NCBI RefSeq assembly: GCF_963921235.1
Contig: NC_086097.1
Coordinates: forward strand, 173,354,001 to 173,418,000
DNA length: 64,000 bases
Direction: 5' to 3'
From: Mobula hypostoma
Lineage: Eukaryota
In this document: positions 6,566 through 48,864 of the stretch, piece by piece
Layout: every line of letters begins with the position of its first letter
How positions within the stretch are numbered: the stretch's first letter is position 1
Made by a program: the position numbers and the translations under genes
Notes under the pieces: generated by a model
The model's input: only the letters and a program-made list of their open reading frames with translations
Databases searched by the model: none
Told to the model about the DNA's origin: nothing

Positions 6566-7909
6566 TAAACCTCAAATAAAACTGAATTTCATTGCTGATT
6601 CCCTTCCCAACATTGTTTTATCATGGTTTAACTAGCCTTCCACAATATTGGTCCCTTTGTATTCTGAATACAAATGTGTGGTAGAAAAGCAAACCAAAAA
6701 GAATATCTTAAGAACGAAAAAATGAGAGAACAATGAACATCAAAGATTTACAAACATGGATTTGTCTGTGAAGTGTCACTGAATTTGCAAAGAATTCTTA
6801 AGGCTGAACATGAAGGAAACAAGATTCAAACTTCAGTCCAATTGGACCACAAATAAGCAGAAATATCATCACAGTCAAGTATCAATGTGGGCCACGTCTC
6901 TGCTTGGCAGAAAAGGACTTGCAGCTGTGAAACCATCTCAGACTCTGTAGTGGTTGTACGTGTTGACTCCAGGACTACAGGATGCAGTTCTGACAGCTCT
7001 GGCCACATTTCTTTTACAATTGACACTGCTCTTCTCAACTGGTTGATGTGTTGTAGATAATATCAGGTGCAATTCCACTGTGTAGGAGAATAGTCTACTC
7101 TTTATGAGAACCCACTTTTGATCACCTCTGTAGTTCTTCGCCAGGACTGCCTGTCCAGGAGTGAAATATCAAACCTCCTTATTTTAGGAGCCTTCAAATT
7201 GTCTCAGCTGCTTGTCCTGTGTATTGTTTCTGAGACTGGGTTTGAGGAGATCCAAGCGTGAGCACAATGGACTACACAGGAGTAGCATTGCTGGAGGGGT
7301 GTTGGTTGTGGAGTGTGCTGCATTGCAATATGCAAGGAGAAAAGTAAAGACCTTCTGATTCAGAGTCAGTGTAGTATGTTCTGCTGACATTGTTCAAAGT
7401 GCATCTTTAGACTCTGGATAAACCTTTCTGTTAAGCCATTTGTAGCTGTGTGGAGTAGCACAGATGTAATATGTCTTATTCCATTCATTTTTAGGGATGA
7501 GTGAAACTGTTGCACAACAAACTGTGGTCCATTGTCACTGACTAAGTATTCAGGAACACCAATCCTTGAGACTTCTCAACACATCAACAGTGCACGAGAC
7601 TACAGTGGAGGCTATTAGGGACACTTCTGGCTACTTTGTAGCTGCATCCACTACTACCAAGACATTTGTACCCATGAAAGGTCCAGACATTTGTACCCAT
7701 GACATTTGTACCCATGAAATCCACATGAATCCTCTGCCAAAGAAATGCAAGCAATTCCCAAGGAGAGATGCTGCTCTAAGAATTTTCTGGACGTATTAGC
7801 ATCCCGAAGAGTGCATAGCAAGCAGCTCAATCTGCTGATCTATCCCAGGCCACAAGACAAAGCTTTGAGCCAATGCTTTCATTTTGATCACACCTAGATG
7901 AGCAGTATG

Positions 7910-8327
7910 GGCCCCACCTCCCCCTCGTACCCCATCTTTTTATGCACACATTCTTTCTCTCACTCTCCTTTTTCTCCCTCTGTCCCTCTGAATATACCTC
8001 TTGCCCATCCTCTGGATCCCCCCCCCCTTGTCTTTCTTCCCGGACCTCCTGTCCCATGATCCTCTCGTATCCCCTTTTGCCTATCACCTGTCCAGCTCTT
8101 GGCTCTATCCCTCCCCCTCCTGTCTTCTCCTATCATTTTGGATCTCCCCCTCCCCATCTAACTTTCAAATTCCTTACTCACTCTTCCTTCAGTTAGTCCT
8201 GACGAAGGGTCTCGGCCTGAAACGTCGACTGCACCTCTTCCTACAGATGCTGCTTGGCCTGCTGCGTTCACCAGCAACTTTGATGTGTGTTGCTTGAATT
8301 TCCAGCATCTGCAGAATTCCTGTTGTT
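7910..8327 (+). mobile_element. Penelope-like element 3' end (pLTR) with hammerhead motif
   Basis: Same sequence as that following the GIY-YIG C-terminus at 17210-17638; perfect 15-bp TSD TAGATGAGCAGTATG at 7895-7909 and 8328-8342. Confidence 0.85.
8195..8230 (+). ncRNA. minimal type-I hammerhead ribozyme motif, core intact
   Basis: AGTC|CTGACGA|A|GGGT-CTCG-GCCT|GAAA|CGTC|GACT; helix I AGTC/GACT, palindromic ACGT helix III, predicted cleavage after GUC at 8226. Confidence 0.8.
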
Positions 8328-9045
8328 TAGATGAGCAGTATGTAGCTCCTCCAACACTTTAGAACTCAGCTTGGATGATACAACAACTCTCAATGCCCAC
8401 ATAAGGCAACCTCCAACAGGGGCAAGTTTATCCTGGCTATGGTAAAATGAGGGAGTTGGAATATCTGCTACATATTTCAGCCATTTTGAGTTGTCATGTA
8501 CATTTCAGACATTGTGGGGTCTTTACTGGTTTCCCTTTGGATCTTCTCTGCTGTAATAGGAAGACTTTCGATTTGCATAAGGAAGAATATGTTAAGTGTT
8601 CTATTTGGTAGAATTTTTCCAGCTATTTCCTTTCCCAAGGGTTAAAAGCACAATCCATCAGCCTTTCCATGATTAGTTGTCCTCTTGAATTTGATCTTGT
8701 AAATGTGCCCTCCAAGAAACAGAGCCCACCTCTGCATTCTTGCTGCTGCTGTTTGTGGAACACCCTTCCGTGGATTAAAAATGCACACTGGTGGTTGATG
8801 ATCAGTCACGAGGATAAACTCTCTCCCATATAAGTACTTGTAGAGATGTTTCACATCCCAAATCAGATTCAAGGTCTCTAAGTCAATCTGTGCATAATTT
8901 TTCTCTGCAGAAGTAAGGAAAGGTGATACAGAGGCTGTGGGGTGTTCACTTCCATTATTCATGAAACATGACCTGACTGCACCTATACCATAAGGCGAGA
9001 TGTCACAGACAAGATTCATTGGACAATGTGGAACATAATGTGTGA

Positions 9046-13262: not shown

Positions 13263-13984
13263 GAATTTGACAATTCACTTGTAGAATTGGGACCTTAGAT
13301 ATCTGGGCAAATGCAGCAATATCAAATCCTGCTGAACACCTGTGACGAGGTACAACATACTTCAATCCAATGACCAAAGCTTATATAGCCCTTTTTAGCC
13401 AAATATCCAACGGCTAAATGTGGCTATGTAATTTGGTCTCTTACACATCTTCCTTTGTTTTCTCTCTATCATTTTGGGCATGCAAATGAAAGAATCAGGT
13501 ATGTCTGGCAACCAAACAACTAAAGGGATTAGAGAATTAGTGTCTGAGTATCAGATGTGACCCTTGGTTGGTGGTTTGAGATCAAGATTTCAACAGGGAG
13601 CAGAATTGGAAAGTCTGGGAGACACGGACATGCAGTTGGAAAATAGGGCATTTGGGCAGTCAGGAAGAATGCTGAACGATCAAAAGAAGGCAAGAGAGAA
13701 GTTGGTCAGTGGGGGGAAGATGGGTGGTGGAAGTGGTGAACCTGAGTAGTACACCCTATTGGAAATTGCCCAAAAACAGGTATGTCTTATAACAGCCGCA
13801 ACTCAGAAACTTCGAAGCCTCTCTGAGTCTGCTAATTTATTGCCCAAGCTGAATCATTTCACCTGCTAAGCCAGTTCCACCATCCAATGAGAGTACGGCT
13901 GATCCATAATTCTATAAATGCACCTCTCCACTCCCTTGCCATTGCCAACTGCCCAAATGCTATTCACATCAGGAAAAAAAATAT

Positions 13985-14090
13985 AAAAGCAACACACATG
14001 AAATGCTGGAGGAACTCAGTAGGCCAATCAGCATCTTTGGAAAAGAATACAGTCAACGTTTCAGGCCGAGACCCTTCAGTAGGATCATTT
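13985..14090 (-). mobile_element. PLE 3' fragment with mutated hammerhead (14051-14086; CTACTGA core)
   Basis: Reverse complement of the 8195-8290 motif block. Confidence 0.7.
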
Positions 14091-14796
14091 GGAGCTGAAT
14101 GCTTAAAATTACTATATTTTTCAGGCACCACTGACATAGCACAATTATCACAATTTGAGATTTAATAATCCTACAAAAAGCACCTTCAGAGACTGAATAA
14201 GTGTTTAAAACAAACATCTGTGAATACATGACAGTTTTGAGTGAATGAAAATCTTGAAAACCACCTTCCAGGTATGAAAAGAACTCCAAATAATTCAAAA
14301 TGCATGTCCTCGGAAATTACACTAATGAGAGATCATTCTTTTGGTACAATTCAGTCTGCTTACTTACTAATTTCAACTTTTCATCGTGCATATTACCATC
14401 CTTCAGCTAGAAAAGAGTACAGTTTCTGTCACTACTCATTCACTGTAATACTTAAGTACCCAAGCAATGCTTGCTATTGGAATTTGAGGGGATGAGGGTC
14501 ACCTATGAAGTTTAAATCATGTGTAAATGGATTTGCATTCATCAAAGCTTGCCAATACCAAGACTCTGGGTTCTGATTTACAACAAATCATCAATGCGTT
14601 AACTGTTCTACAAGTAAGACTTCCAAGCCACCTGATGTCAAAGTTCAAAGAGGACATAGAGCACTACAGAAAGAATTAGATTTACATCATGCTTCCTTAA
14701 GGTCTGTCAGCTCATGGCATTTTATAGCAAAGTAAATACATATATCTTAAGTGTAGTCACTATGTTAAGAAACACAGCGACCAACTTGCGCACAGC

Positions 14797-15303
14797 TTGG
14801 GTGATCTGTGCTCAGCCACGAGGGGTGATGCTGATCTTCCCATTTCATGTCACTTTAATTCTCAATCCCTCCCGCATTCTGACCCATCTGTCTGTGGTCT
14901 TCTCCAGTGCTTTAGAGAGGCCTGACATACACAATAGAAACTTGCAACCCTTGGAATAAATACTGAATTCTCCAACACTAGAGAAATTGCATTCATAATT
15001 TCCATTATGTTCCATGTTCAATGTTCTATGCTTGTTATCATACCCAAGTCTCTTTCATACATAATTTCTTTAAAATCTCTTGCTAACAACACTTGATCTA
15101 TCTTAACCAATCTCCTTTTAGACTCTTGTCTTACACCTCACTCCTTCCCCTAAGCGCCCCTTTGGAAAGTGTAAACCCTCCACTCTCTCCCTAGTTCTGA
15201 GGAAGGGTAGCTGACCTGAAACATTAAATTGTTTCCCTGGCTGAGCTATTCAAGCATTTTCTGCTTTTGTTTCAGAACCCAACACTCTGCAGTTTTATTT
15301 GTT
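14797..15303 (+). mobile_element. older PLE (GIY-YIG C-terminal relic + pLTR, hammerhead relic 15193-15229) inserted in a DeuSINE-like fragment
   Basis: CHFNS..HSD-like relic; CTGAGGA-A-GGGT..ACCT-GAAAC; near-TSD TTGCGCACAGC (14786-14796) / TTGCATACAGC (15304-15314). Confidence 0.6.
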
Positions 15304-16693: not shown

Positions 16694-16806
16694 CTGAGCT
16701 GTGCCCATAATTCTTTGCAGCTTCTTAAGATTCACATGCAGAGCAGTTGCCATACAAAGCCATTATGCATCCATACAGGCCAGGCAGCATCTCTAGGAAG
16801 AAGTAC

Positions 16807-16842
16807 AGTCGACGTTTCGGGCCGAGACACTTCGTCAGGACT
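16807..16842 (-). ncRNA. minimal hammerhead ribozyme motif, core intact, one helix II mismatch
   Basis: Minus strand AGTC-CTGACGA-A-GTGT-CTCG-GCCC-GAAA-CGTC-GACT. Confidence 0.7.
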
Positions 16843-17506
16843 AACTGAAGGAAGAGCTAGTAAGAGATTTGAAAGTGCGAGGGGGAGGGGGATATCTGAA
16901 ATGATAGGAGAAGACAGGAGGGGGAGGGATGGAGCCAAGAGCTGGACAGGTGATTGGCAAAAGGGATATGAGAGGATCAGACTGGGAGATCGTTTTGCAA
17001 AACACCTACGCTCTGTCCGCCAGAGAAAGCAGGATCTCCCAGTGGCCACACATTTTAATTCCACATCCCATTCCCATTCTGATATGTCTATCCACTTCCT
17101 CCTCTACTGTAAAGATGAAGCCACACTCAGGTTGGAGGAACAACACCTTATATTCCGTCTGGGTAGCCTCCAACCTGATGGCATGAACATTGACTTCTCT
17201 AACTTCCACTAATACCCCACCTCCCCCTCGTACCCCATCCGTTATTTATATACACACATTCTTTCTCTCTTTCTCCTTTTTCTCCCTCTGTCCCTCTGAC
17301 TATACCCCTCGCCCATCCTCTGGGTTTTCCCCCCATCCCCCTTTTCCTTCTCCCTGGGCCTCCTGTCCCATGATCCTCTCATATCCCTTTTGCCAATCAC
17401 CTGTCCAGCTTTTGGCTCCATCCCTCCTCCTCCTGTCTTCTCCTATCACTTTGGATCTCCCCCTCCCCTTCCACTTTCAAATCTCTTACTAGCTCTTCCT
17501 TCAGTT

Positions 17507-17542
17507 AGTCCTGACGAAGGGTCTTGGCCCAAAACGTCGACT
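17507..17542 (+). ncRNA. hammerhead motif with catalytic GAAA mutated to AAAA (probably inactive)
   Basis: AGTC-CTGACGA-A-GGGT-CTTG-GCCC-AAAA-CGTC-GACT. Confidence 0.6.
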
Positions 17543-18642
17543 GTACCTCTTCCTAGAGATACTGCCTGGCCTGCTGCATTCACCAGCAAATTTGATGTGT
17601 GTTGCTTGAATTTCCAGCATCTGCAGAATTCCTCGTGTTTATGCATCCATACAGAATGCTTTCTATGACTCTTCAATAAAAAATAGTAAGTTGCTGGAGA
17701 CAAAGGGATATGCTGAATTTCTTTAGCCTCCTGAAGAAGTTGGTGAGCTTTCTTGGGCGTGACATCAATATGGTTGGGGCAGGACACCTGGAAATTTGAA
17801 GCTCTCAACCTCAATACCACTGATGTTTCCTGATGTCAATGACCAGCTTTTTTGTTTTGTTAACATTGAGGGAAAAGTTGATATCATGACACCATGTTAA
17901 GTAAGCTCTCTATCTCCTTTCTGTACTCATCGTCCTTTAAGATATAGCCTACTACAGTGGTATCATTAGCAAACTTGTAGCTGGAGTTAGAGCAGAATCT
18001 AGCTTCAGAGGCATGAGTATACAAGAAGTACAGTTGGAGGCTCTATTCTTTTCATCCATTACTGGTGTACTAAATGGGCATTCTGTTGTGCCTAGCTCTA
18101 ATTCAGGAGCTACCAAAATAAATGACACAATTGGAACAACTCGGCTTTAAGAAATTACTCCTGAATTTATGATCAAGAATATTAATAGCGCATTCACGTA
18201 TGGCTGCTGCTTGTTGGCCATTGGGAGCCAAGTTCCTGTTGTTGCAGTTAACTCTTGCGGCAGCCACGGAGCCTGACAACAAGATACAGCTAAATGGAGA
18301 TGGAGGGGGTAAATTGGTCTGGTGAAAGGTTAAATAGTACAGCATGATACCTGATCAACTGGCTATAACTAGGCACATATATAAACTTCCAAGTATTATG
18401 GGGCTGATACAAGATTGAGAGGGTTAAGGCCAACAGCTAAATATAAAATTGTGAATTTTAAAATCAAGGGAACGCTGGACCTGAATCTGATACAGATCAG
18501 GGTCCTCAGGAATGATGCATGATTCACACATGGAGGATTTAGGATGAAGGTAGCAGAATTCTTGCTGAAAGAAACCACTTCTATTATTTATTAAAGACAA
18601 TAAACAGCATATCTGTCTGAAGTTTGGTTTGGCACAACACAC

Positions 18643-18912: not shown

Positions 18913-18954
18913 TTCAATACATTCCAAAACAGTTTACAGGAAATGAAATACAAC

Positions 18955-19170
18955 TGAAAAAGCAAAGTGCTTCAGGGACACAGCTTGCCAGGCAGCATCT
19001 GTGGAGGGAAATGTACAGGGAATGTTTCTGGTCTGAAACTTCATCTGATGAAAGGTCTCGATCCAAAACATCAACTATCCATTTCCTTCCACAACTGCTG
19101 CTTGACCCACTTAATTCCTCCAGCACTTTGCTTGTTACTCCAGATTCCAGCATCTGCAGTCGCTTGTGTT
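18955..19170. mobile_element. decayed fold-back PLE fragment (minus copy joined to plus copy at the hammerhead core)
   Basis: caggcagcatctgtgg...cttcatc|tgatgaaaggtctcg...ccagcatctgcag. Confidence 0.6.
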
Positions 19171-19749
19171 TGCAACTATATGATCATTATTGTAATGGAA
19201 AAAATGCAGCAGCTACTCTGAGTATAGTAAGCTCTGACAAAAAATAAAATGGTAATACCCATTTAATACTTCCCCTATGTTGATTGAGTAATAGGTTTTG
19301 GCCAGATCACTAAGGAGAATACCCGAGACAGCATTTTTTCCACTCACTGAGAGGGTGCATAAAGGCTTCAGGTAAGGTCTCATTTTCTCTGAACGTGAAG
19401 GACTTCCTCAGAAATGAATTATAGTGATAGCTGTGAGTAGATTCACAGTAAGGATTCAAAACATGTTTTAATTTGTTGTTTTATATATATATCTCTGGCT
19501 CTAAGTAGATTTGTATCATGTTGTTAATGTTAATGTGGTGACCAAATCATAATTCACAAACTTCACAAAAAATACTTGAAATACACATAGTATCAAAACT
19601 TGTACATCAAATATATCCCTCTATTTAGTTCATTGTGTGAAGCAAAATTAGTTTGGAGTTTAGGCATTAAGACGTAAAACCCAACAGTCCAGGATGACCT
19701 TCAAAAGAAATTACAGATGCATTGAAGGGAAAACCAATAAAACTGCAGA

Positions 19750-20172
19750 AACAGCACACACAAAATACTGAAGTAACTCAGCAAGTCAGGCAGCATCTAT
19801 GGAAAAGAATAAACAATCAACATTTCAAGCCAAGACCTTTCTTCAGGACTGGAAAGGAAGGGGGAAGAAGCCAGAATAAAATGGTGGGAGGAGGGGTAGG
19901 GGACTAGCTAGAAGGTGATAGGCAAAGCCAGGTGGGTGGGAAAGATAAAGGGCTGGAAATGAAGGAGGGGTACCAGAGGGAGGTGATAGGCAGGTGAGGA
20001 GAAAAAGAAAAAAGCTATAGTGGGGAATAGAAGCAGAGGGAAGGAGGAGGGGAAATGATCATCGGAAGGAGAAATCGATATTCATGTCATCAGGTTGGAA
20101 GCTACCTAGACGGAATAAGAGATGTTGCTCTGCCACCCTGACAGTGGCCTCATTGTGGCAAAAAGAGGAGGC
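19750..20172 (-). mobile_element. PLE 3' part (GIY-YIG C-terminal relic + pLTR; hammerhead motif 19815-19850)
   Basis: Minus strand AGTC-CTGAAGA-A-AGGT-CTTG-GCTT-GAAA-TGTT-GATT; LLFRLGSFQPDDMN-like relic. Confidence 0.75.
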
Positions 20173-20186
20173 TAAGTGATACTTAC

Positions 20187-25641: not shown

Positions 25642-25808
25642 AAAAATGAAATCAAATCATTAGAAAGAGGTGACATAAGGTTGGAAGGAGTTGAATCATT
25701 ATGGATTGACCTGAACTGCAAGGGTAAAAAGACCCTGATGGGAGTTATATACAAACCCCCAAACAGTAGTAAAGATGTGGCCTGCACCTCATGGTTGAGC
25801 CCACTAGG
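25642..25808 (+). repeat. 167-bp exact copy of 27148-27314 (CR1 endonuclease fragment)
   Basis: Base-by-base identical by eye, offset 1506 bp. Confidence 0.9.
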
Positions 25809-26577: not shown

Positions 26578-29492
26578 AGGGACTAATTTCCTAGTGGGAA
26601 GATCTATTAATGCTGCAGGAAAGGGCTTAAACAAGTTGCAGGGGGATGGTAACCAAAGTGCAGAACAGTTAGTAGAAAGGTTGTGGAGGCTGATGTTGGT
26701 AAGACCTCAGACAAAGTTAGGAATCAAAACATTAAGCATGGTGCAACTGGTGCGCTGAGCTGCATTTCAATGCAGTAAGTATCATTGGAAAGGCAGATAA
26801 CAGTGCTGAACATGAGGTAGATGGTTTACAAACAGAGGCAATGTGTAGTGAGGAGAGGCTGTTGATACGGCAAATTTGCAGTCAACAAGATGAGTTGCAA
26901 TGTAAAAGGCAGAAAAAAAAATCAAATTTGGTGAATAGAGGACTGAAGATGTTATATTTAATGCCGCAGTATATGGAATAAGCTAGATGAACTTGCAGCA
27001 CGGTTGCAGATGGACAGGTATGATGTTTTTGGCATCGCTGAATTACGGCTGAAAAAAGATTGTAACTGGGAACTTAATGTCCAAGGGTACGCATTGTATC
27101 AAAAGGACAGGCAGGAAGGCAGAGAGGATGGCATTGCTCTGTTGGTGAAAAATGAAATCAAATCATTAGAAAGAGGTGACATAAGGTTGGAAGGAGTTGA
27201 ATCATTATGGATTGACCTGAACTGCAAGGGTAAAAAGACCCTGATGGGAGTTATATACAAACCCCCAAACAGTAGTAAAGATGTGGCCTGCACCTCATGG
27301 TTGAGCCCACTAGGGTATCAGCTTTTCTGGATTAGGTGTTAGTGCAATGAACTGGAATTGATTAGCGACCTTAAGGTAAAAGAAGCCTTAGGGGCAAGTG
27401 TAGTATGATCAAATTCACCCTGAAATTTGAGAAGGAAAAGCTAAAGTCAGTTGTGTCTTTATTACAGTGGAGTAAAGGGAATTACAAAGGCATGAGAAAG
27501 GAGTTAGCTGGAATTGATTTGAAACGAACACTGGCAAGGATGATGGCAGAACAGCAAAAGCTAGAATTTCTGGAAGCCATTCAGCACAGGATATATACAT
27601 CCTAAAGTGGACGAAGTATTCTAAAACAAAGATGATACAACCATGGCCAACAAGAGAACTCAAAGCCAACATAAAAACCAAAGATTGGGCATAAAATAGA
27701 GCAAAAATTAGTGGGAGGTTAGAGAATTGGCAAAATTTTAAAAACTAATACAGGGCAACTAAAAATGTCATTAAGAAGGTAAAGATGGAATACGAAAGTG
27801 AGCTAGCCAGTAATGTTAAAAAGGATACCAAAAGTTTCTTCAGATACATATAGTGTAAAAGAGAGGCAAGAGTGGATATTGGACCATTGGAAAATGATGC
27901 CGGAGAAGTAGTAATGGGGGACAATGAAATGGTGGATGAATAAGTATTTTGCATCTGTGGAAAACACTAACAGTATGGATGGAAGTTCCAGGTATCAGTG
28001 GGCTTGAAATGTGTGAAGTTATCATTCCTAGAGAGAAAGTTCTTGAGTAACTGAAAGAATTGAAGGTAGATAAGTCACCTGAACAAGGTGGTGTACACTC
28101 CGGAGTTCTGAAAGAGATGGCTGAAGAGATTGTGGATGCATTCATAATGATCTTTCAAAAGTCACTAGGTTCTGGAAGACTGTAACATTGCAAATGTCAT
28201 TCCTCTCTTGAAGAAGGGAGAAAGGCAGAAGAAAGGAAAATATATACCAGTTAGTCAGACCACTGTGGTTGGGAAGATGTTGGAGTCAATTGTTAAGAAT
28301 GTGGTTTCAGGGTACTAGGAGGTACATGATGTTGGGTACTTGGATTTTGAGAAGGCTTTTGACAAGTTGCCACACATGAGGCTCCTTAACAAGCTACAAG
28401 CCCATAGTATTACGGGAAAGATCCTAGCATGGATAAAGCAGTGGCTGATTGTTAAGAGGCAAAGATTGGGAATAAAAGGAGCCTTTACTGGCTGGTTGCC
28501 AATGACTAGTGGTATTCCACAGGAGTCTGTGTTGGGACCGATTCTTTTGGTCAATGATTTGGATGATGGAATTTTTGCAGATGATATAATGATAGGTGAA
28601 GGGGCAGGTAGTTTTGAGGATGTAGAGAGGCTACAAAAGGACTTAAGACAGATTAGGAAAATGGCCAAAGAAATGGCAGATGGAAAACAGTGTCAGGAAG
28701 TGTATCGTCACGGTAGAAGAAAATTAAAGTGTTGACTATTTTCTAAATGGAGAGAAAATACAAAAATCTGAGGCATAAATCTGAGATATGAGAGTCCTTG
28801 TGCAGGAATCCCTAAAGATTTATTTGCAGGTTAAGTCTGTGATTAGGAAGGCAAATGGAATGTTAGCGTTCATTTCAAGAGGACTAGAATATAAAAGCAA
28901 GGATCTAATGTTGAGACTTTATCAAGCAGTGGTGAGGCCTCACTCAGAGTATGGTGAACAGTTTTGGGCCCCTGATCTTAGAAAGCATTGCTGAAACTGG
29001 AGAGCACTCAAAGGAGATTCACAAAAATAATTCCAGGATTGAACGGTTTGTCATATGAAGAGTGTTTGATGGCTCGGGCCTGCATTCAGAAGAAAGACAG
29101 GTGACCTCATTAAAACCTGTCGAATGGTGAAAGACTTGACAGAGTGGATGTGGAGAGGCTGTTTCCTATGGTGGGAAAGTCTAGGGTCAGAGGACACAGC
29201 CTCAGAATGGAGGGATGTTCTTTTAGAACGGAAATGACAAGGCATTTCTTTAGCCAGAGAGTAGTGAATCTGTGGAATTCTTTGCCGCCGGCAGCCATGG
29301 AGGCTAAGTCTTTATATACATTTAAGGCAGAGGCTGATAAATTCTTGATTGGTCAGGGCATGAAGGGATATGAAGAGAAGGCAGGAGACTGGGGCTGAGG
29401 GGAAAATTAGATCAGCCACGATGAAATGGTGGAGCATACTGGATGGGCCAAATGGACTAATTCTACTCCTATATCTTATGGTCTTATGGTCT
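26578..29492 (+). mobile_element. decayed CR1 LINE (ORF1 end, APE endonuclease, RT, 3' tail) with internal deletions
   Basis: GVIYKPPNS, DFEKAFDK, GIPQESVLGP, FADD; (TCTTATGG)n tail. Confidence 0.85.
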
Positions 29493-33598: not shown

Positions 33599-33684
33599 GC
33601 TTTACAAAACATATGTATATTTTTCATGGTACAAGAACAAGAGCTGAGCCAAACATCCTTTTGACTTACATGAATATCTCTGTG

Positions 33685-34470
33685 CAACACAGACAAAATG
33701 TGAGAGGAAATCAGCAAGTCAGGCAGTATTTACAGAGGGAAATAAACCATCAATGTTTTGGGCTGGGGCCCTTTGTCAAGACTGAGAAGCAAGGGGCAGA
33801 AGCCAAAATAAAATGGTGGGGTAAGGGGGAGAAACACAAGCTGCTAGGAAATAGGTGAGTCCAGGTGAAGTCTGTCCACGGCCTCCTTTACTGCAACTAT
33901 GAGGTCTGACCAAGGTTGGAGGAGAAACACTTCATATTCTATCTGACATGAACATCATTTCTCTAACTTCTAGTAACCACTCCCCTTTTTCCCCCACACC
34001 TCTCCATCCCCACCACCACCTTTTGTTTTCCCTCTTCCTGATAGTCCTTTCACTTCTTTTCTTCCCCTCCCTTGCTGTCATGACCTGTCCATTACCTACC
34101 TCTGATTCCCCACACCAATACCCTTTATGTCTTGGTCTACTGTCCTCGGCTGTCAGATTCTTTCTTCTTCAGCTCTCTGCCTCTTCCACCTATCATCTCC
34201 TAACTTCTCACCTCATTCCCTTTGATTCTCCCTCTCCCACCTATCTACTTTTGCCCTCTCACCTGGACGCATCTACTTCCTACCATCTTGTGCTCTTCTC
34301 CTTCCCACTACTTTTTTTTTATTCTGGCTTCTGCCCCCTTTCTTTCCAGTTCTGATAAAGGGTGTCAGCCCAAAACAATGACTGTTAATTTCTCTCCATG
34401 GACCCTGCCTGACCTGCTGAGCTCCTCCAGCAATTTGTATGTGTTGCTCAAAATTTCCAGGATCTGCACA
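33685..34470 (+). mobile_element. decayed PLE with inverted 5' pLTR (~33685-33868) and 3' pLTR (hammerhead relic 34348-34383)
   Basis: Same architecture as 16779-17638 but more diverged. Confidence 0.7.
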
Positions 34471-34694: not shown

Positions 34695-35095
34695 ATGCTA
34701 GAGACTGTAGATGCTGGAATCTGGAGGCAAAAGGAAATTGCTAGAGAAACTCAGATGGTCAGGCAGCATCTGTTTGGTTGGGGGAGGGTGTGGTAACGCA
34801 TTTGACATTTCAAGTCGAGATCCTTCAACTGGACTTGTCTTCAGCCAAAATGCAGACTGCTCTTTTCCCTGACAGATGTTGCCTGACTTACTGAGATCCT
34901 CCAACAGTTTATTGACTGCAAATTTCAGCAGGTCTCTCCATTTTAGTACTCAACTGCCAAAGCTGTCAAAGTATGCCCACTTTCAAGATATCCTCCAGTC
35001 CAGATGAAGACACTCAACTCGAAATACAACTGCCCATTTCCTTCAGCGGATGCTGCTTGACCCACTGAGTTCTTCTTGCAATTTGTTTTACTTTA
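34695..35095. mobile_element. decayed fold-back PLE fragments
   Basis: gatgctggaatctgg...caggcagcatc followed by cagatgttgcctgacttactgag, then another plus fragment at ~34995-35090. Confidence 0.55.
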
Positions 35096-35339
35096 CTTAT
35101 TGATGAGTGCACCACATCAGTTTTTCCTCGAGAAAAAAATACATGGAAAATAGCCAATAATTGGCTTAATTTCTTAGTTTAATCTTTTCTTTGGCTGATA
35201 TACAAGGGATTAGTGTAACTCAACATCAGTAATGCAATTAGTTTGACAGACCACCACCAGCCGATGGCTGCATTGTTCTAGGTTCTAAATATTAAGTTTA
35301 TATATATAAAACTTAATGGCAGCACCCTTAACAGCACTA

Positions 35340-35998: not shown

Positions 35999-37241
35999 CC
36001 CATGGCCCATTAAATCTACAATATCAGCACTTAGAACAGAACCTCTGCTTTGAGAAACCAGGCATCAATATCAAGCAAGCTCCAAATTGATACTGTTCAG
36101 CAACAGGCAAAATATAATTCTAACGACATGCGTGAAATCAAGATGCAGAAAGGCATTCTTAGTGCACTGGCATGAGCTTTTCCATTTCCTATCAGCTGTC
36201 TTTCTGGCCTCTCAGGTTGATTGCCAATCTGCAGTTAATTTTCGGCAATTTTCTGTTGTAGGTCAGGTAATGGGGAAATGAGCTGTGGCTGCCCAAACTC
36301 ATTTCACTAGGGCCCTTCCAGCTGGCAAAGAGAGGTCCTGCATACTGTTAATATGTGTTTAATTTCAGTCTCAGTCAGTGATGAAAGGACAGCATCTCTT
36401 TACTGCAAACCTCTTATTCCTGGACATCAAAACCAAAGCTGCATTTCACAGACTGGTTTGAGTCTGCTTCAAATGATTAGCAGCTGATGGCCATCAGCTA
36501 ATAGCACTCAAAAATAGGATCAGTAACTAAACTACTGGTCTTTTTGACATATATTAATGATCTGGGACTTGGATATATGGGACTTAATTTCAAGGTCTAC
36601 AACCAGAGGAAATTTAGTTATGGTAAATAATGAGATGAATATTAACAGATTTCAAGAGTACTTAGAAAGGCTGATGGAAAGGCCAGATGCAGTCTGAAGC
36701 AGAGAATTGTGAAGCGATGTGTTTTACAGTGAAGAGTTAGGGGAGAGAAGTAGAAGGTACAATTATAAAATTACAGCAGCAGCGGATCTTGTGAAATAAG
36801 TGCAAACAGAAGACAAAAGTTCAAACAGAAGAACCAAATTTTAAAAAGGCTTTTTATTAAATCTTGGAATAGAAAAGCAAGGAAGTTATGATAAACCTTG
36901 ATGTTCCATATCAGATGGACTATTGCTCAATTTCAGGCACCACATTTCAGGATTGATGTCAAACCAATCCACTGAGTGTGTTGTAAGAACATCACGACCT
37001 TCGGGCTTCCCTCTGAGTCAAAAGGCAAAAAGGAATATCTGAGAGGTAAGCTTTTGAAGTTGGTAGTTACCTGGAATGAAACTGTCAGGAGATATAGTAG
37101 AGGCAAATAAAATTGCAACATTTAACAGCCATTTGGACAGGAGCTTAGATAGGACAACCATTTGAAGATACAAAGCCAAATGCAGACAAAAAAGATCACT
37201 AACACACTTACTTCCTCAGGAAGCTAAAGAAACTTGGCATA

Positions 37242-37402
37242 GTTGCTGGTGAACGAAGCTAGTCCTGACGAAGGGTCTCGGCCTGAAACGTCGACTGTAC
37301 CTCTTCCTAGAGATGCTGCCTGGCCTGCTGCGTTCACCAGCAACTTTGATGTGTGTTGCTTGAATTTCCAGTATCTGCAGAATTCCTGTTGTTTGCGTTT
37401 TT
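37242..37402 (+). mobile_element. minimal ~160-bp PLE insertion (short inverted leader + hammerhead + 3' tail)
   Basis: AGTTGCTGGTGAACG is the reverse complement of 37331-37345; TSD GAAACTTGGCATA (37229-37241) / GAAATTTGGCATA (37403-37415). Confidence 0.8.
37261..37296 (+). ncRNA. minimal type-I hammerhead ribozyme motif, core intact
   Basis: Identical to 8195-8230. Confidence 0.8.
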
Positions 37403-38869
37403 GAAATTTGGCATATCCCTGTTAACCTTTAATAATTTTAATCAATGCATCATAGAAAGTATTGTCTGGATGCATGACAGATTGGTATGGCAACTGCTCT
37501 GCACGTGATCACAAGAAACTGCAGAGGGTCATAGACACAGCTTGTCATATCACAGCAACTAACCTCCCCTCTATGGACCCTCTGCCTCAGTAAAGCAGCC
37601 AACATAATCAGAGACCCCACTACCATAAACATTCTCTCTTCTCCTCCTTCATCGGTCAGAAGATACAAAAGCCTAAAAGTCCATGCCATGAGGCTCAAGG
37701 AAAGCATTTAGCCCACTGTTATCAGACTCTTGAAAGCACGTCATGTGTGATAAGATGGAATTTGATCTCACAACCTACTTCATAATGATCTTGCAATTTA
37801 TTGTTTACCTGCACTGCACTCTTTCGGTGGCTTTTCCATTTTACTCTGCAATGTTATTGTTTTGTGTTATTCTACCCAGTGCCCTGTGTAATGATTTGAT
37901 CTGTATGAATAGTAGGCAAGACAACCTTTGCATTGAGTACTGGTACAAGTGACAATAATAAACTAACATTAATGCCAAGAAGCAAAAACCTCAAAGCATG
38001 AACCACCAATCTCAAGGATATCTTCGACCCTGCTGTTAGAAGATTATTGAAGAGTCCCCGAATAGACGTACTCTTGACCTCACAATTTACCTCATTATGA
38101 CCTTGCACCTTATTGTCTGCCTGCACAGCACTTTCCCTGTAACTGTAACACTTTAATCCTCATTCTGTTATTGTGCACTGATATGAAATGACCTGGATGG
38201 ATGGGGTGAAAAACATAGTTTTTCACTGTATCTTGATATATCACATTAATAAACCAATTTATCAATTTAAATGAGATAAGCATAAATAGGCATCACAGAT
38301 GCCATGAACAAAGTACCCCTTATGTGCCAGTTTCTGTGCAGTATGATTCTATGATTTAGTAATTAAGGCAAACGAGCATGGCAGATCTACTCATTCATAA
38401 TAAATCTCTTCTTCTCTGCTGCATTGCAGGTTAGGACACTAACCATTTCCTATTCCGCTGAAGGTACTGTAACTGATCAAAATAACTCTCTTCACCAATG
38501 CTGTCTGTGCTGATAATTATTTTCAATATTTGTTGTTTTCTGATTTTCAGCATTTGCAGATTTTTTTTCCTTTCAATAAAGAAATTAACATTTGTTTTGG
38601 TCTGGTAGCTAAGGCTGACAGTTTTGTTTCAAGATATTCCTTGAGGTTTCATCACATGAGGCCACTGTTGTTTAAAACTACAAACCTTCAGATGTACACA
38701 TGTGTATTTTTCTCTAGGTTTGTTTATAGTGTTGCAAAGGTACCACTACCATGGGAAACAGATTCTGACCATCTGCCCTGTCCATGCTTCTTTTAAGTTG
38801 AGGCCTATAAAAGATACAGAGAAAGTAGCTTTCCAACATCTCTCCACAACTAAGTTCTACCATGCTGGT

Positions 38870-41050
38870 GAATCTCTACTGCACTCTTTCTATGTGCAGG
38901 ACTGTACACAATATTCCAAGTGTGGTGTAACTAGCCTTTTGTAAGGTAGCAACATAATATACATTCAGTACTCTAATATATGATGGCTATTATCCCTTCT
39001 GCCATCTTCACCACCTGTCTACCTGTGGTGCCATTTTCAGGCAATGATGGACTCTAACCTCAAAGTCCTTCTGTTCATCAACAATCCTTGGTGCCCTCCC
39101 ACTTATTGTATTTCTTATATCTATTTGACTTGGCAAGTACATCACAAATAAAAAAAGAGTCCCAGAACCAATTCCTGCAGCACACACTAGTCACAGATTT
39201 CCAATCAGAGAAGCATCCTTCCAACATCACCGTTTTCCTTCTATCAGCAAGGCATTTTTGAATCCAATTAGCCAGCTTACCTTGAATACCATGTGCCGAA
39301 AACTTCTGTGGACATTCAAATGGATATTGTCAAGTTCATTACACAGGTCTACTTTCCCTACTCTTGCCAATCATTTTAGTTACCACTCTGGCCCTTTGAA
39401 CAAAAAAAGTGTGCTTTATCCGACAACTCTGATTTTTGTCTGAACCCTGAACTTTAGCAATTCCTGCCCAATGTCATTTTCAAAATTAATTATGTGAAGA
39501 GTTTTCCAAGAACATCAACCTGGTACCTTAAAAGCATACAATACAGAAGCAGAATTAAGCCATTTGGCCCATCGAGTCTGTTCCTCCATTTCATAATAGC
39601 TGATCCATTTTCCCTCTCAGCCCCAAGAATCTATCAACAGCTGCCTTAAATATACCCAAAGGCTTGGCCTCCACAATCACCTGTGGCAATGAATTCCACA
39701 GATTTGCCACTTTCGGTTTAAAGAAATTCCTACTCATCTCCATTCTAAAAGGACACCCCTTTATTCTGAGGCTGTGTCCTCTGGTCTTCAACTTCCACAC
39801 CATAGGAAAATTCTCTCCACATCCACTCTATCATGGCCTTTCAACATTCAATAGGTTTCAATAAGGTCACCCCTCATTCTTCTGAATTCAAGTGAATACA
39901 GGCCCACAGTCATCAAACACTCCTCATGTGACAAATCCTTCAATCCCAGAATCATTTCTGTGAATCTCCTGTGAACCCTCTCCAATGTCAGTACATCCTT
40001 TCTAAGATCCGGGGCCCAAAACTCCTCACAATACTTCAAGTGAGGTCTCACAAATGCTTTATAAAGCCTCAAGAATACAACCTTGCTTTTATATTCCAGT
40101 CCTCTTGAAATGAATGCTAATATTGTATTTGCCTTCTGACTCAACCTGACAATTAACATTTAGAAAATCCTGCTCGAGGACTCCCAAGTCCTTTTGCCCC
40201 TCAGATTTTTTAAAAATTGTCTCTTCATTTAGAAAATAGTCTATGCTTTTATTTCTTCTTCCAAAGTGCATGACCATACACTTCCTCACACTGTATTCCA
40301 TCTGCCTATTCTTTGCCCATTCTTCTAATCTGTCTAAGTCCTTTTGTAGCCTCTCTATTTCCTCAAAACCACCTGCCCCTCTACCTATCTTCGTATCATC
40401 CGCAAACATGGCCACAGAGCCATCGATTCCATCATCCAAATCACTGACATATAACGTAAGAAGAAGCTGCCCCAGCACAGACACCTGTGGAGCAGCACTA
40501 TTCACCAGCAGCCAATGAGAAAAGACTCCCTTTATTCCCACTCTTTGCCTCCTGCCAATCATCCAATGCTCAATTTAATACCTCTGGTATCCTACCCCTT
40601 CCCTTTCTTCCATGGCCTTCTGTCCTCTCCTATCAGATTCCCCCTTCTCCAGCCCTTTATCTCTTTCACCAATTGACTTCCCAGCTCACTACTTCACCAT
40701 TCCCCCCTCCCAGTTTCACCCATCACCTACCACCTTGTATTTCTTCCTCCCCTCCTCCCCACCTTATTATTCTGACTTCTCATCTTTTTTCACCAGTCCT
40801 GTTGATGGGTCTTGGCCCAGACTGTTGACTGTTTACTCTTTTCCATAGATGCTGCCTGACCTGCTGAGTTCCTCCAGCATTTTGTGTGTATTGTTTGAAT
40901 TTCCAGCATCTGCAGATTTTCTCTTGTTTGTAATGCTCTATCCACGTTAGCAGTTTTTCTGTAGTAACATGAGCTCTTAACTTGTAAAGTGTGGCCTTCT
41001 GAAAATCCCAGTACACACCATCAACCAATTTTTCTTTGTCTATCCTGCTT
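38870..41050 (-). mobile_element. CR1 fragments (older 38870-39430; younger 39530-41050 interrupted by a PLE)
   Basis: Minus ORFs PQVSVLG, MFADDTKIG, RPHLKYC. Confidence 0.8.
40575..40931 (+). mobile_element. PLE pLTR with degenerate hammerhead (40795-40830)
   Basis: Near-TSD AATGCTCAAT (40565-40574) / AATGCTCTAT (40932-40941). Confidence 0.7.
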
Positions 41051-43555: not shown

Positions 43556-44100
43556 CAAAGTAAAATCAAATGGATCCTAGAAAACATAGCTTCTCATGGA
43601 AAGGGGTTAAGCTGGCCAACTAATCTTCTCTTTATAACTTGGCTTGGTGCCTTCCTGGAGGGTTCCAGACTGAACTACAAGCATCTTTGCTACAGCACTA
43701 CAGACGCCGGGAATCTATTCTTCAGTCAACAAGAATTCCTCACCAAACACTTTCAAAAATTAAACTAATTTGTTTCAACTGCTGTTGAGATATCTGTGTA
43801 GAAAGTGCTTTCCATATATTCCGACAATAATGATTACCCTTCAAAAAGCAATTCAGTGGCAGTTCAGTGACATCAAACAAATTCTAAACATTGTTTCAAT
43901 TTTCATTATCATTTATTTACTAAATATATTTATAACAGCAATTTTAAAACACATTCAATGGCCTAAACCATAACCAAGAAATATACATTTCAATACTATC
44001 ACAGCAGCTGAGGAACTTAAATTCAATTGAAATAATCTGAAATAAATAACTGTAAATAAGAAACACCTGGATTATTGTAGAAAATCTAATTAGGTTACGT

Positions 44101-44310
44101 GACAGTGATGGTAAGAATTGGAGGAGATGGGAGTTGAATGCGTGGCTGAGGAGTTGGTGCAGGGAGCAGGGTTTTAGATTTTTAGATCATTGGGATCTCT
44201 TCTGGGGAAGGTGGGACCTGTACAGATTGGATGGGTTGCACCTGAACTCGAGGGGGAGCAATATCCTTGCAGGTAGGTTTGCTAGCATGGTTCGGGAGGG
44301 TTTAAACTAA
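44101..44310 (+). pseudogene. CR1 ORF1 C-terminus (SGNH/GDSL-type esterase)
   Basis: LNAWLRSWCREQGFRFLDHW..DGLHLN..REGLN*; DxxH motif. Confidence 0.85.
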
Positions 44311-47245
44311 TTTGTGAGGGGGATGGGACCCAGAGCGATAGAGCAGTGAAAGAAGTGCATGGAGTAAAGCCAGATCTAACATACAGAGAGGCTTTGAGGA
44401 AAGAGAAGCAGAATAAACAGTGTAAAGACAGTAAGGTAGAAGGGCTGAAATGTGTGTACCTCAATGCAAGAAGCATCAGGAACAAAGGTGATGAACTGAG
44501 AGCTTGGATACATACATGGAATTATGATGTAGTGGCCATTACAGAGACTTGGCTGGCACCAGGGCAGGAATGGATTCTCAATATTCCTGGATTTCAGTGC
44601 TTTAAAAGGGATAGAGAGGGCAGAAAAAGGGGACGAGGGGTGGTATCACTGGTCAGGGATACTATTACAGCTACAGAAAGGGTGGGTAATGTAGCAGGAT
44701 CCTCTTTTGAGTCAATATGGGTGGAAGTCAGGAACAGGAAGGGAGCAGTTACTCTACTGGGGGTATTCTATAGGCCCCCTGGTAGCAGCGGAGATACAGA
44801 GGAGCAGATTGGGAGGCAGGTTTTGGAAAGGTGCGAAAATAACAGGGTTGTTATCATGGGTGACTTTAACCTCCCTAATATTGATTGGCACCTGATTAGT
44901 TCCAAGGGTTTAGATGGGGCAGAGTTTGTTAAGTGTGTCCAGGATGGATTCCTGTCACAGTATGTGGACAGGCCGACCAGGGGGAATGCCATACTAGATC
45001 TAGTACTAGGTAATGAACCGGGTCAGGTCACAGATCTCTCAGTGGGTGAGCATCTGGGGGACAGTGACCACCACTCCCTGGCCTTTAGCATTATCATGGA
45101 AAAGGATAGAATCAGAGAGGACAGGAAAGTTTTTAATTGGGGAAAGGCAAATTATGAGGCTATGAGGCTATAAGGCTAGAACTTGCGGGTGTGAATTGGG
45201 ATGATGTTTTTGTAGGGAAATGTACTATGGACATGTGGTCGATGTTTAGAGATCTCTTGCGGGATGTAAGGGATAAATTTGTCCCGGTGAGGAAGATAAA
45301 GAATGGTAGGGTGAAGGAACCATGGGTAACAAGTGAGGTGGAAAATCTAGTCAGGAGGAAGAAGGCAGCATACATGAGGTTTAGGAAACAAGGATCAGAT
45401 GGGTCTATTGAGGAATATAGGGAAGCAAGAAAGGAGCTTAAGAAGGGGCTGAGAAGAGCAAGAAGGGGGCATGAGAAGGCCTTGGCGAGTAGGGTAAAGG
45501 AAAACCCCAAGGCATTCTTCAATTATGTGAAGAAAAAAAGGATGACAGGAGTGAAGGTAGGACCGATTAGAGATAAAGGTGAGAAGATGTGCCTGGAGGC
45601 TGTGGAAGTGAGCGAGGTCCTCAATGAATACTTCTCTTCGGTATTCACCAATGAGAGGGAACTTGATGATGGTGAGGACAATATGAGTGAGGTTGATGTT
45701 TTGGAGCATGTTGATATTAAGGGAGAGGAGGTGTTGGAGTTGTTAAAATACATTAAGACAGATAAGTCCCCAGGACCTGACGGAATATTCCCCAGGCTGC
45801 TCCACGAGGCGAGAGAAGAGATTGCTGAGTCTCTGGCTAGGATCTTTATGTCCTCGTTGTCCACGGGAATGGTACTGGAGGATTGGAGGGAGGTGAATGT
45901 TGTCCCCTTGTTCAAAAAAGGTAGTAGGGATAGTCCGGGTAATTATAGACCGGTGAGCCTTACATCTGTGGTGGGAAAGCTGTTGGAAAAGATTCTTACA
46001 GATAGGATCTATAGACATTTAGAGAATCACGGTCTGATCAGGGACAGTCAGCATGGCTTTGTGAAGGGCAGATCATGTCTAACAAGCCTGATAGAGTTCT
46101 TTGAGGAGGTGACCAGGAATATAGCTGAGGGTAGTGCAGTGGATCTGATCTATATGGATTTTAGTAAGGCATTTGACAAGGTTCCACACGGTAGGCTTAT
46201 TCAGAAAGTTAGAAGGCATGGGATCCAGGGAAGTTTGACCAGGTGGATTCAGAATTGGCTTGCCTGCAGAAGGCAGAGGGTGGTGGTGGAGGGAGTACAT
46301 TCAGATTGGAGGATTGTGACTAGTGGCGTCCCACAAGGATCTGTTCTGGGACCTCTACTTCTCGTGATTTTTATTAACGACCTGGATGTGGGGGTAGAAG
46401 GGTGGGTTGGCAAGTTTGCAGACGACACAAAGGTTGGTGGTGTTGTAGATAGTGTAGAGGATTGTCAAAGATTGCAGAGAGACATCGATAGGATGCAGAA
46501 GTGGGCTGAGAAGTGGCAGATGGAGTTCAACCCGGAGAAGTGTGAGGTGGTACACTTTGGAAGGACAAACTCCAAGGCAGAGTACAAAGTAAATGGCAGG
46601 ATACTTGGTAGTGTGGAGGAGCAGAGGGATCTCGGGGTACATGTCCACAGATCCCTGAAAGTTGCCTCACAGGTGGATAGGGTAGTTAAGAAAGCTTATG
46701 GGGTGTTAGCTTTCATAAGTCGAGGGATAGAGTTTAAGAGTCGCGATGTAATGATGCAGCTCTATAAAACTCTGGTTAGGCCACACTTGGAGTACTGTGT
46801 CCAGTTCTGGTCGCCTCACTATAGGAAGGATGTGGAAGCATTGGAAAGGGTACAGAGGAGATTTACCAGGATGCTGCCTGGTTTAGAAAGTATGCATTAT
46901 GATCAGAGATTAAGGGAGCTAGGGCTTTACTCTTTGGAGAGAAGGAGGATGAGAGGAGACATGCTAGAGGTGTACAAGATAATAAGAGGAATAGATAGAG
47001 TGGATAGCCAGCACCTCTTCCCCAGGGCACCACTGCTCAATACAAGAGGACATGGCTTTAATGTAAGGGGTGGGAAGTTCAAGGGGGATATTAGAGGAAG
47101 GTTTTTTACTCAGAGAGTGGTTGGTGTGTGGAATGCACTGCCTGAGTCAGTGGTGGAGGCAGATGCACTAGTGAAGTTTAAGAGACTACTAGACAAGTAT
47201 ATGGAGGAATTTAAGGTGGGGGCTTATATGGGAGGCAGGGTTTGA
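44301..47245 (+). pseudogene. CR1 ORF2 (APE endonuclease + reverse transcriptase), broken by one 8-bp duplication at ~45153-45168
   Basis: LNARS, ITETW, YRPP, MGDFN, SDH; NYRPVSLTS, DFSKAFD, GVPQGSVLGP, KFADD; removing TATGAGGC joins ORFs 44346 and 45191 in frame. Confidence 0.92.
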
Positions 47246-48282
47246 GGGTTGGCACAACATTGTGGGCCAAAGGGCCTGTACTGTGCTGTACTATTCTATG
47301 TTCTATGTTTATTTTCTAATCCAGATTTACTGATAAACCACTTCAGATTCACTGGAAATCCAAGATGGGCAATAAATTTCAGTCTTGCCAGTGACATCCT
47401 CATTGTACAATTTTATAATGTGTCATACTACAGCAAAGAGTACCAGACAGACATATCCCAAACACAATGGGCATATCCCTCCCTATCATCGGTAATATCT
47501 ATCGGAGTAACTGCCTCAAGGAAGCAACGTCCATCATCAGAGTTCTCTACCATCTGGGCCATGTCATCTTCTCACAGCAACCACCAAGCCAGAGGTACAA
47601 AACCATAAAGTTTCACACCACCACATAAGAACCACAACCTTCATCCAACCATTTGTTTCTTGAACCAACCAGTATAACCGTAATCACCATAGTTTAGCAC
47701 TTCTATGACTACTTTGATTACTTTGCACTAAAATGAACTTCTTTGTTTTATTTGTGTTTTTTCTTGCAAAAATTGTAAAACTTATGGTTTTTGTTTGCTG
47801 CCAATGTGATGCCAAGTGTCTGCGATACTGCTTCAAAATTCTGTCATTGCCAATGTGCTTACATGTACTGTACTTGTGCATACAATAAGTTAATGAACTC
47901 ATCAAGAAAAAACCCAAGCAGAACAAAAGTCAGAACACTTCAAAATATCTGATATGGCAAGGGGAATCAACATAGCAAATAAAGAAAAGGGAAAATGCAA
48001 ATGAAAACAGAAAATAGTGGCAGAACCAGAATCCAGTTAGTCAATTCCATGGAAGTTAGAAATACAACTTCACCTCCAATTCTGCTGTCATATTTCAATT
48101 TGTTTATGTTTGCTCCATCAGTCAATATCAAATGAAGAAAGATGATAAATCCAAATTTGAAAATAGAAGCCCATCATGCTGAAATTCAAATAATTATTCA
48201 CTTTGGATAGTCTCAGCAAGCCCAGCAGCATCAGTAAAGAGCAAAACAAAATTCATATTTCAGACTGATTACCTTTTATAAG

Positions 48283-48754
48283 CAACACACATAAAATTGC
48301 TGGTGAACACAACAGGCCAGGCAGCATCTGTAGGAAGAGGTACAGTCGATGTTTCAGGCTGAGACCCTTCATCAGGACTAACTGAAAGAAGAGATTTGAG
48401 AGGGGGAGGGGGAGATCCAAAATGATAGGAGAAGACAGGAGGATGGAGCCAAGAGCTGGACAGGTGATTGGCAAAAGGGATATGAGAGGATCATGGGACG
48501 GGAGGCTTAGGGAGAATGAAAGGGGGAGGGGGGAAGCCCAGAGGATGGGCAAGGAGTATAGTGAGAGGAGCAGAGGGAGAAAAAGGAGAGAGAGAAAGAA
48601 AAAATAATAATAATAATAATAAAATAAATAAATAACAGATGGGGTACGAAGGGGAGGTGGGGCATTAACGGAAGTTAGAGAAGTCAGTGTTCATGCCATC
48701 AGGTTGGAGGCTACCCAGACGGAATATAAGGTGTTGTTCATCCAACCTGCGTGT
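48283..48754 (-). mobile_element. PLE 3' end (GIY-YIG C-terminus + pLTR)
   Basis: 11-bp TSD CCTTTTATAAG at 48272-48282 and 48755-48765; EQHLIFRLGSLQPDGMN. Confidence 0.85.
48344..48379 (-). ncRNA. hammerhead motif, core intact, AUC cleavage triplet (helix III palindrome lost)
   Basis: Minus strand AGTC-CTGATGA-A-GGGT-CTCA-GCCT-GAAA-CATC-GACT. Confidence 0.65.
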
Positions 48755-48864
48755 CCTTTTATAAGTGGAAGTTCTAATGAGATATCATCTAACTGAAACA
48801 TTAACCCCATTTCTCTCTATGATACATAACCTACTAAGTAGCTCCAATGTTTTCATTTGTATTA

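Follow-up and report, generated by a model that had tools for sequence, protein, structure and literature searches.

Hammerhead ribozymes have been described in the Penelope-like elements (PLEs) of fish and other vertebrates (Cervera & de la Pena 2014, PMC4209133), and a survey of PLEs and retrozymes includes one chondrichthyan (Li et al. 2026, 10.64898/2026.07.22.740005). In vitro, the Poseidon element PAc of Anolis carolinensis uses two internal starts, cuts both DNA strands, shows protein-assisted RNA cleavage and inserts independently of that cleavage (Frangieh et al. 2024, PMC11167929). Penelope of Drosophila virilis carries a promoter and a short intron inside its pseudo-long terminal repeat (pLTR; PMC2377424), and this intron ends at helix I of the hammerhead (PMC4209133). 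Our statements on the cited papers refer to the portions drawn on here; the text portion and two supplementary files of PMC4209133 name no cartilaginous fish. A literature search, with Repbase and most subscription journals outside it, listed none that deals with PLE hammerheads of sharks or rays, and none that draws on editing marks within PLE insertions. Here we analyze a 64,000-nucleotide stretch of the Mobula hypostoma genome (assembly GCF_963921235.1, contig NC_086097.1, positions 173,354,001 to 173,418,000, forward strand; the window), in which an earlier note had recognized a family of PLEs whose pLTRs carry minimal type-I hammerheads, together with relatives of these copies throughout the genome. 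The sequences support that interpretation. The link between hammerheads and Penelope elements is already published; the new part comes from the copy number and from a record of A-to-G (A>G) marks, which suggests that one sense RNA is read more than once during insertion.

Judging from its sequence, the element is almost certainly a hammerhead-bearing Penelope-like retrotransposon, young and in very high copy number. The unit is 3,515 nt long, and its one frame of 1,043 codons, encoding a reverse transcriptase (RT) and a GIY-YIG endonuclease, is open in 20/20 loci, with copies 98.4 to 99.9% alike; the first fully conserved methionine is residue 28, which would give a protein of 1,016 amino acids. 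The single open reading frame with RT and C-terminal GIY-YIG, the upstream partial-tandem arms of 53 to 3,369 nt at all 20 full-length loci, which mark the repeats as pLTRs, and the inverted 5'-truncated arm with a 30-40-bp tail at one end are the features of endonuclease-positive (EN+) PLEs. Pfam matches to RVT_1 (E 1.5e-5) and GIY-YIG (E 7e-4) are both weak and below the Pfam cut-offs; the PLE protein motifs PADKG, YIDD and YIG are present. Among 310 homologs with RT domains, the best is a bamboo-shark protein (72%), and the rest (33-56%) are mostly unnamed or invertebrate. A CX4CxxC linker (residues 910-918 of the frame at locus L053; L-numbers label individual genomic loci of the element), together with CxxC 953-956, H975 and H991, provides the linker and CCHH residues of the Neptune clade, to which the element may belong; the linker also occurs in Nematis. 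Within the endonuclease code of the same locus (L053:3103-3333), contigs of three sequencing runs contain a GT..AG joint whose short side is only 20 nt, possibly a cryptic intron.

Every full-length copy (20/20) has a sense-strand hammerhead in both flanking repeats, 88-93 nt before the frame and ~295 nt after it, with the CUGANGA and GAAA boxes, helices, GUC triplet and palindrome that the earlier note had described. The two hammerheads of one element are thus 3.5 kb apart and do not form a short tandem. The very high copy number proposed earlier is borne out by 57,914 exact matches to the 34-nt hammerhead core in the 3.48-Gb genome (control 0); one-base variants in helix II add 2,887 (control 14). 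An nhmmer profile built from the window copies, with no hits in a reversed-sequence control, finds 49 copies in 264 kb (19 in the window and 30 in 200 kb elsewhere, half of that adjacent), which by extrapolation would correspond to ~0.5-0.6 million relics genome-wide.

A>G clusters were first seen at L059 and L006. Among 213 arms not picked for edits, a survey that excluded L123-L168, such clusters occur in 4 arms of 3 insertions, and clusters of T>C, G>A or C>T in none. Genome-wide, a double A>G motif has 26 matches vs 24,858 for the unchanged sequence, and a double T>C control has 0. Ten inverted pairs carry marks in both arms, always in element-sense orientation, with 43 shared of 51 and 52, whereas independent insertions have few in common (mean Jaccard 0.12, maximum 0.30, 102 pairs); two selected sites and four subfamily sites were excluded from the sharing count, and the poly-C tract at -215..-195 and CpG transitions were also dropped. 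Here and below, signed positions count from the predicted cut site, with the C of the GUC triplet as 0 (in the first window copy, C8226). The tandem at L384 repeats 19/19 marks 3,515 nt apart; in the tandem at L059, 10 marks are shared of 12 and 15, and a marked 35-mer from this locus is found only in its own three arms. The arms of L059, L157, L159 and L160 are not nested, so both arms were copied from RNA. Of a further set of 20 loci, three (L161, L167 and L168) fell under an 88% cut; at a cut of 80%, L168 has 31 A>G, L161 is free of clusters, and the arm at L167 still drops out. No new marked case appeared among 19 further full-length loci. L156 has no marks in its arm overlap, L154 and L160 have few, and the plus arm of L158 has marks as far as -1349, beyond other copies, which its partner arm matches partly.

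From their clustering and strand, these marks may be read as ADAR-like RNA edits. Since the marks are sense-only A>G changes common to the arms of one insertion, one sense RNA was likely read more than once, and we think it probable that a single molecule was read twice. The restriction of the marks to A>G on the sense strand argues against the antisense self-priming proposed in PMC3846280. One mark recurs at position -327 (L384 and several marked copies), where it hits the stop codon and lengthens the frame, to 1,073 codons at L384. L154 and L155, 4 Mb apart on one contig, have the same three marks and a further variant, and may be parent and daughter or sisters.

Ordinary sequence variants also connect the arms of an insertion. 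Divergence between arms is 0.63% within one insertion vs 1.20% between insertions, and arms agree at 137/144 informative sites (96.9 expected). The agreement is uneven along the unit: at 39 loci, non-CpG alleles are shared by both arms in 40/48 cases upstream of -190, in 16/35 at -190..-33 and in 21/22 after the cut (Fisher p 1e-5, with sites that are not independent). The disagreement between -190 and -33 argues against a plain circle as template. This comparison excluded L400, a young full-length element whose last ~460 nt have been replaced by an older-subfamily pLTR, as a chimera or through insertion into an old copy.

The ends of the copies indicate where copying starts and stops. We mapped the first 100 genomic matches, in genome order, to a 31-mer from the tail (64,048 matches in total). 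The 3' ends of these arms fall into two clusters 35-40 nt apart, with 52 at +59..75, 47 at +95..117 and 1 at +257, and 60 of the arms stop within -60..+29, including 20 at -36..-27 and 6 at -5..+5. Head-to-head insertions combine the two kinds of start: 82 of 97 pair a short (+64) with a long (+102) end, none pairs two short or two long ends, and 15 have one arm unclassified. A target duplication of 13-15 bp flanks 70/97. In 32/82 short-plus-long pairs neither arm contains the other, and such insertions are therefore not the fold-back copy of one cDNA. Head-to-head insertions have one start of each kind, one per DNA strand; this strict count is new from these data, and the one-sided tail was already known.

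None of the full-length copies has its 5' end at +1 (0/20, and 0/26 in a second set, where 26/40 loci reached the anchor); full-length copies pass through the cut site a second time. Genome-wide, 992 matches have a purine before +1, compared with 528 before +4 (control). Of 30 inspected +1 candidates, 16 are point mutants, and small deletions or joins of inverted arms through a GAC microhomology account for most of the rest; solo junctions number 1/30 at +1 vs 5/30 at +4. The lack of 5' ends and of a junction excess at +1 indicates that the template runs unbroken through the cut site, whether it was never cut or was joined again, and genomic copy ends give no sign of cut RNA as template. As the origin of the arm stops at -36..-27 we considered a capped transcript start at -31, in keeping with 3,193 copies with a non-T before helix I, of which 29/30 are true junctions; against it, there is no clear excess of untemplated G, and only 2/46 full-length 5' ends lie at -26 to -31.

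The best overall explanation, to which we give a probability of roughly 0.6, is a sense RNA, probably uncut, that is copied from two internal starts and re-read. At about the same odds, the edits would record copying in vivo, in which both nicked strands prime at two fixed starts on one sense RNA, the unit is re-read to rebuild the upstream repeat, and the ends are bridged at the hammerhead. The element's protein would nick both DNA strands ~14 nt apart, and each nick would supply the primer for one of these starts, which lie close to the 5' end of the open reading frame. Both cDNAs would copy the same RNA molecule, and their joining would give the inverted form. A processive cDNA would jump between the two repeats of the RNA, near the hammerhead on its first pass and, on its second, at the transcript start between about -285 and -190, and so rebuild the upstream partial tandem. 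A linear RNA that begins at -285..-190 and is primed near its 5' end, with a crossing to the 3' repeat at the hammerhead and a second jump at the 5' end of the RNA, would fit all three allele zones; a start inside the pLTR is plausible given the promoter in the D. virilis pLTR (PMC2377424). Cutting by the hammerhead would require a dimer or the element's protein, and might serve, for example, to free the 3' end. The part of this explanation that prefers jumps on an uncut linear RNA to a circle is tentative.

Several observations weigh against re-reading of an uncut sense RNA, which is drawn entirely from genomic sequence. The transcript start and both jump points are deduced from allele patterns at non-independent sites, and where alleles disagree they often belong to older subfamilies, which means that conversion by, or switching to, older copies may explain the middle zone. 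Three of the 100 arms start exactly at +1, and +1 junctions are about threefold over +4 if inverted-arm joins count, mostly at GAC microhomology. Among the marks, the genome-wide T>C control is a single site, L149 is marked in one arm only, L158 shares only part of its marks, and the marks of the L059 tandem are interleaved with differences. The three-mark pattern common to L154 and L155 means that marks can pass through DNA, and those of L384 may likewise come from a parent copy. The 5'-neighbor bias is also mild, with U and A enriched and G not strongly avoided.

Among the alternatives, a circular template is somewhat unlikely. The two hammerheads, acting as an intramolecular dimer over a distance of 3.5 kb, would both cut; the unit would then be closed into a circle (a route proposed in PMC4209133), and the RT would run round it more than once. 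This would suit hammerheads exactly one unit apart in all full-length copies, the one-unit spacing of the repeated L384 marks, the agreement of alleles after the cut site, and second-pass 5' ends scattered from +93 to -3,368. However, a circle predicts identical arms everywhere, and the -190..-33 alleles mostly differ, at L384 as elsewhere; the L059 tandem arms differ at 7 marks, one-fifth of arms stop at -36..-27 and not at the join, and predicted folds shut the core.

Marks already fixed in parent DNA, or spread between arms by gene conversion, would say nothing about the re-reading of RNA. The pattern common to L154 and L155 is of this kind, L059 could combine a fixed set with new marks, and source copies may be missing from the assembly. 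On the other side, the L059 pattern is in no other copy, the heavily marked insertions have no siblings among one another, marks keep the element-sense orientation even in inverted arms, and a parent marked in both repeats would need the same double copying one generation before. We regard this explanation as unlikely for the marks as a whole.

The hammerhead itself has the features of minimal hammerhead ribozymes (min-HHRs), including the CUGANGA and GAAA boxes, an NUH triplet, a helix I of 4-5 bp, an extra base after A9 and palindromic 15-16 positions. Helix II is short, with 4 bp and only two Watson-Crick pairs, and its 10.1/11.1 pair is G-U in the dominant young variant (77 of 100 listed young copies, by hand count) and G-C in the other 23 and in older subfamilies. 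Loci picked by the motif bias conservation counts, and our final figures come from 31 old copies picked without it. In these, 90% of the core and 82% of the helices are constant, compared with 53% of the upstream flank and 65% of +5..+16. For the excess conservation that the earlier note had called for the evidence is mixed: the downstream block stands at 86%, and pairs change on one side only, between G-U and G-C or U-G and U-A. In subfamily majorities, the catalytic boxes are constant while flanks and loop II vary. Rfam hammerhead families at the gathering score have no hits in the window.

Folding predicts a closed state for the hammerhead as a lone RNA. In the monomer, pairing of GACG with CGUC would be favored (-11.0 vs -7.0 kcal/mol for the open form), the double hammerhead of a dimer reaches -11.5 vs -30.3 kcal/mol for the best dimer fold, and with upstream sequence a hairpin would capture the core at a probability of ~0.9; these energies take no account of tertiary contacts or protein. 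Single-strand folds are no more stable than shuffled sequence (z -0.12 to -0.98). Contigs of four out of 22 sequencing runs show no pile-ups of starts or ends, and no GT..AG joint at the hammerhead among the joints listed, which, in assembled contigs, is evidence neither way. At 8176-8199, a pyrimidine tract and AG are followed by TTAGTCC, which we take to be initiator-like, at the 5' edge of helix I, where the 20 arms noted above stop. The motif might no longer cut and be kept as a protein-binding or pairing structure that unites the two repeats for the template jump. The G-U pair and weak helix II, alternative folds more stable by 4 (monomer) and 19 (dimer) kcal/mol, and a downstream block nearly as conserved as the core would fit such a role, which we consider quite unlikely since the boxes are unchanged in every subfamily majority despite changing flanks, and a related Anolis motif cleaves once protein is added. 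That the short copies make up a non-coding retrozyme or short interspersed element (SINE) family of their own, as the shortness of 60/100 arms (less than ~180 nt) might suggest, is highly improbable: they have ends, duplications and sequence in common with full-length coding elements, a continuity that rules this reading out for the window copies, and tandem arrays of the unit are absent from the 64-kb window.

The 19 profile hits in the window (Table 1) include all 11 positions at which the earlier note had placed a 36-nt motif: 8195(+), 14051(-), 15193(+), 16807(-), 17507(+), 19045(+), 19815(-), 34348(+), 37261(+), 40795(+) and 48344(-). An exact copy of that motif stands at 8195 and 37261 alone, two sites correctly named as intact young copies; six more sites match within 6 substitutions, and 15193 (a weak hit, nhmmer E 6.6e-5), 19045 and 40795 do not match. 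Decayed copies are present as described, with key positions lost in several, including a helix II G>T at 16807, G12>A at 17507 and the ACGT palindrome at 48344. The predicted cut after C8226 had been placed correctly. The motif had also been said always to follow a GIY-YIG C-terminus, which is wrong for individual copies: tblastn finds endonuclease code upstream in 5/11 (17507, 48344, 19815, 34348 and, weakly at E 1e-5, 15193). The 8195 copy starts directly past the stop codon, and those at 37261, 14051, 16807 and 19045 are too short to hold endonuclease code. Target duplications are exact at three insertions (15, 16 and 11 bp), and a fourth, of 13 bp, has one mismatch.

Table 1. Copies of the Penelope-like element and their parts in the window (positions count from its first nucleotide).
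Feature	Position	Strand	Details
Young 5'-truncated copy (pLTR and long tail)	7910..8327	+	Target duplication 7895-7909 / 8328-8342
Intact minimal type-I hammerhead	8195..8230	+	Helix I 8195-8198/8227-8230; CUGACGA 8199-8205; extra A 8206; helix II 8207-8218; GAAA 8219-8222; ACGU palindrome; predicted cut site
Pyrimidine-rich strand upstream, predicted to pair with catalytic core	8180..8192	+	Folding prediction (probability ~0.9); ribozyme would be off in read-through RNA
Short older relic, damaged core	13984..14091	-	Profile hit
Old relic	14740..15273	+	Weak GIY-YIG similarity 14740-14982; degenerate hammerhead at 15193
Single head-to-head insertion	16779..17638	both	Target duplication 16763-16778 / 17639-17654
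Inverted arm of the 16779..17638 insertion	16979-16779	-	Hammerhead 16842-16807
Plus arm of the 16779..17638 insertion		+	GIY-YIG C-terminus 16940-17206; hammerhead 17507-17542
Old head-to-head pair, very short arms	18949..19160	both	Arms joined within hammerhead
Older-subfamily copy	19749..20163	-	GIY-YIG end; decayed hammerhead 19850-19815
Old inverted pair	33677..34470	both	Plus arm: trace of GIY-YIG code; hammerhead at 34348 decayed
Three additional short old relics	34727..35096		Profile search; absent from the earlier list
Tiny young insertion	37242..37402	+	14-nt inverted stub, then arm from 5' edge of hammerhead (intact, 37261-37296) and long tail
Target duplication of the 37242..37402 insertion	37229-37241 / 37403-37415		13 bp, one mismatch
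Older-subfamily pLTR	40579..40930	+	Decayed hammerhead at 40795
Truncated copy	48283..48754	-	GIY-YIG end; hammerhead 48379-48344 (palindrome lost); short tail; target duplication 48272-48282 / 48755-48765
Old relic beyond the earlier range	54263..54363	-	Profile hit

Other repeats accompany these copies. Two overlapping long frames at 44286-47245 (+), of 295 and 695 amino acids, presumably encode the endonuclease and RT of a CR1-type long interspersed element (LINE), with many older pieces across the window, and a 261-amino-acid frame at 3647-4432 (+) may represent the end of an R2/NeSL-type non-LTR element, with its Cys-His region and restriction-like endonuclease. A perfect 167-bp direct repeat lies at 25642-25808 and 27148-27314, 1.5 kb apart, and an inverted pair of old LINE copies (1.8 kb, 70% alike) at 54360-56132 and 61774-60021.

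With ~58,000 near-identical young copies and many full-length frames, rare insertions with probable RNA edits serve as molecular barcodes. They can be used to ask which strand serves as template, by what route inverted arms and partial tandems originate, and what role ribozyme cutting or circles play. If true, the re-reading of one sense RNA would replace both antisense self-priming and multi-copy-transcript ideas, and this genome would be a place to test if circles arise through the ribozyme.

How does this element compare with those already described? Its hammerhead resembles the min-HHRs of metazoan PLEs, including fish Xena, Poseidon and Neptune (PMC4209133), in its type-I core, the unpaired base between 9 and 10.1, the 4-5-bp helix I, the palindrome in place of helix III and the occurrence of most copies as single truncated ones. 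It differs from them in its 4-bp helix II, in the G-U at 10.1/11.1 of the dominant variant, and in abundance, its 57,914 exact copies comparing with ~4,000 hits in coelacanth and ~9,000 in Xenopus that were obtained by different search methods. The non-LTR retrozymes of animals (10.64898/2026.07.22.740005) likewise have a type-I hammerhead derived from PLE pLTRs, but the copies here are truncated coding elements and do not form short tandem non-coding units. In its C-terminal GIY-YIG, CX2-5CxxC linker and CCHH residues, and in its partial tandems, inverted 5'-truncated arm and tail at one end, the element is like the Neptune clade of EN+ PLEs (Craig et al. 2021, PMC8557442), whereas its long N-terminal region with a Pro/Ser-rich stretch sets it apart.

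The closest parallels in mechanism are with Anolis PAc (PMC11167929), where the tail likewise results from two internal RT starts that lie past the hammerhead, 30-40 nt from each other. Both strands are cut there, as they would be here, and in neither system is there a sign of cut RNA in use. Unlike in PAc, where the start codon is in stem II, the conserved start codon here is ~140 nt past the cut site; a Cys linker in the protein is a further difference. PMC11167929 proposes a multi-copy tandem transcript, whereas the marks here suggest that one unit is re-read, with one start per strand in genomic insertions. The Penelope elements of Adineta vaga (Arkhipova et al. 2013, PMC3846280) likewise include inverted pLTRs joined head-to-head, with a single target duplication and with or without a tail; that study prefers an antisense template that primes itself, while still allowing for sense templates, and it is to sense RNA that the marks in M. 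hypostoma point.

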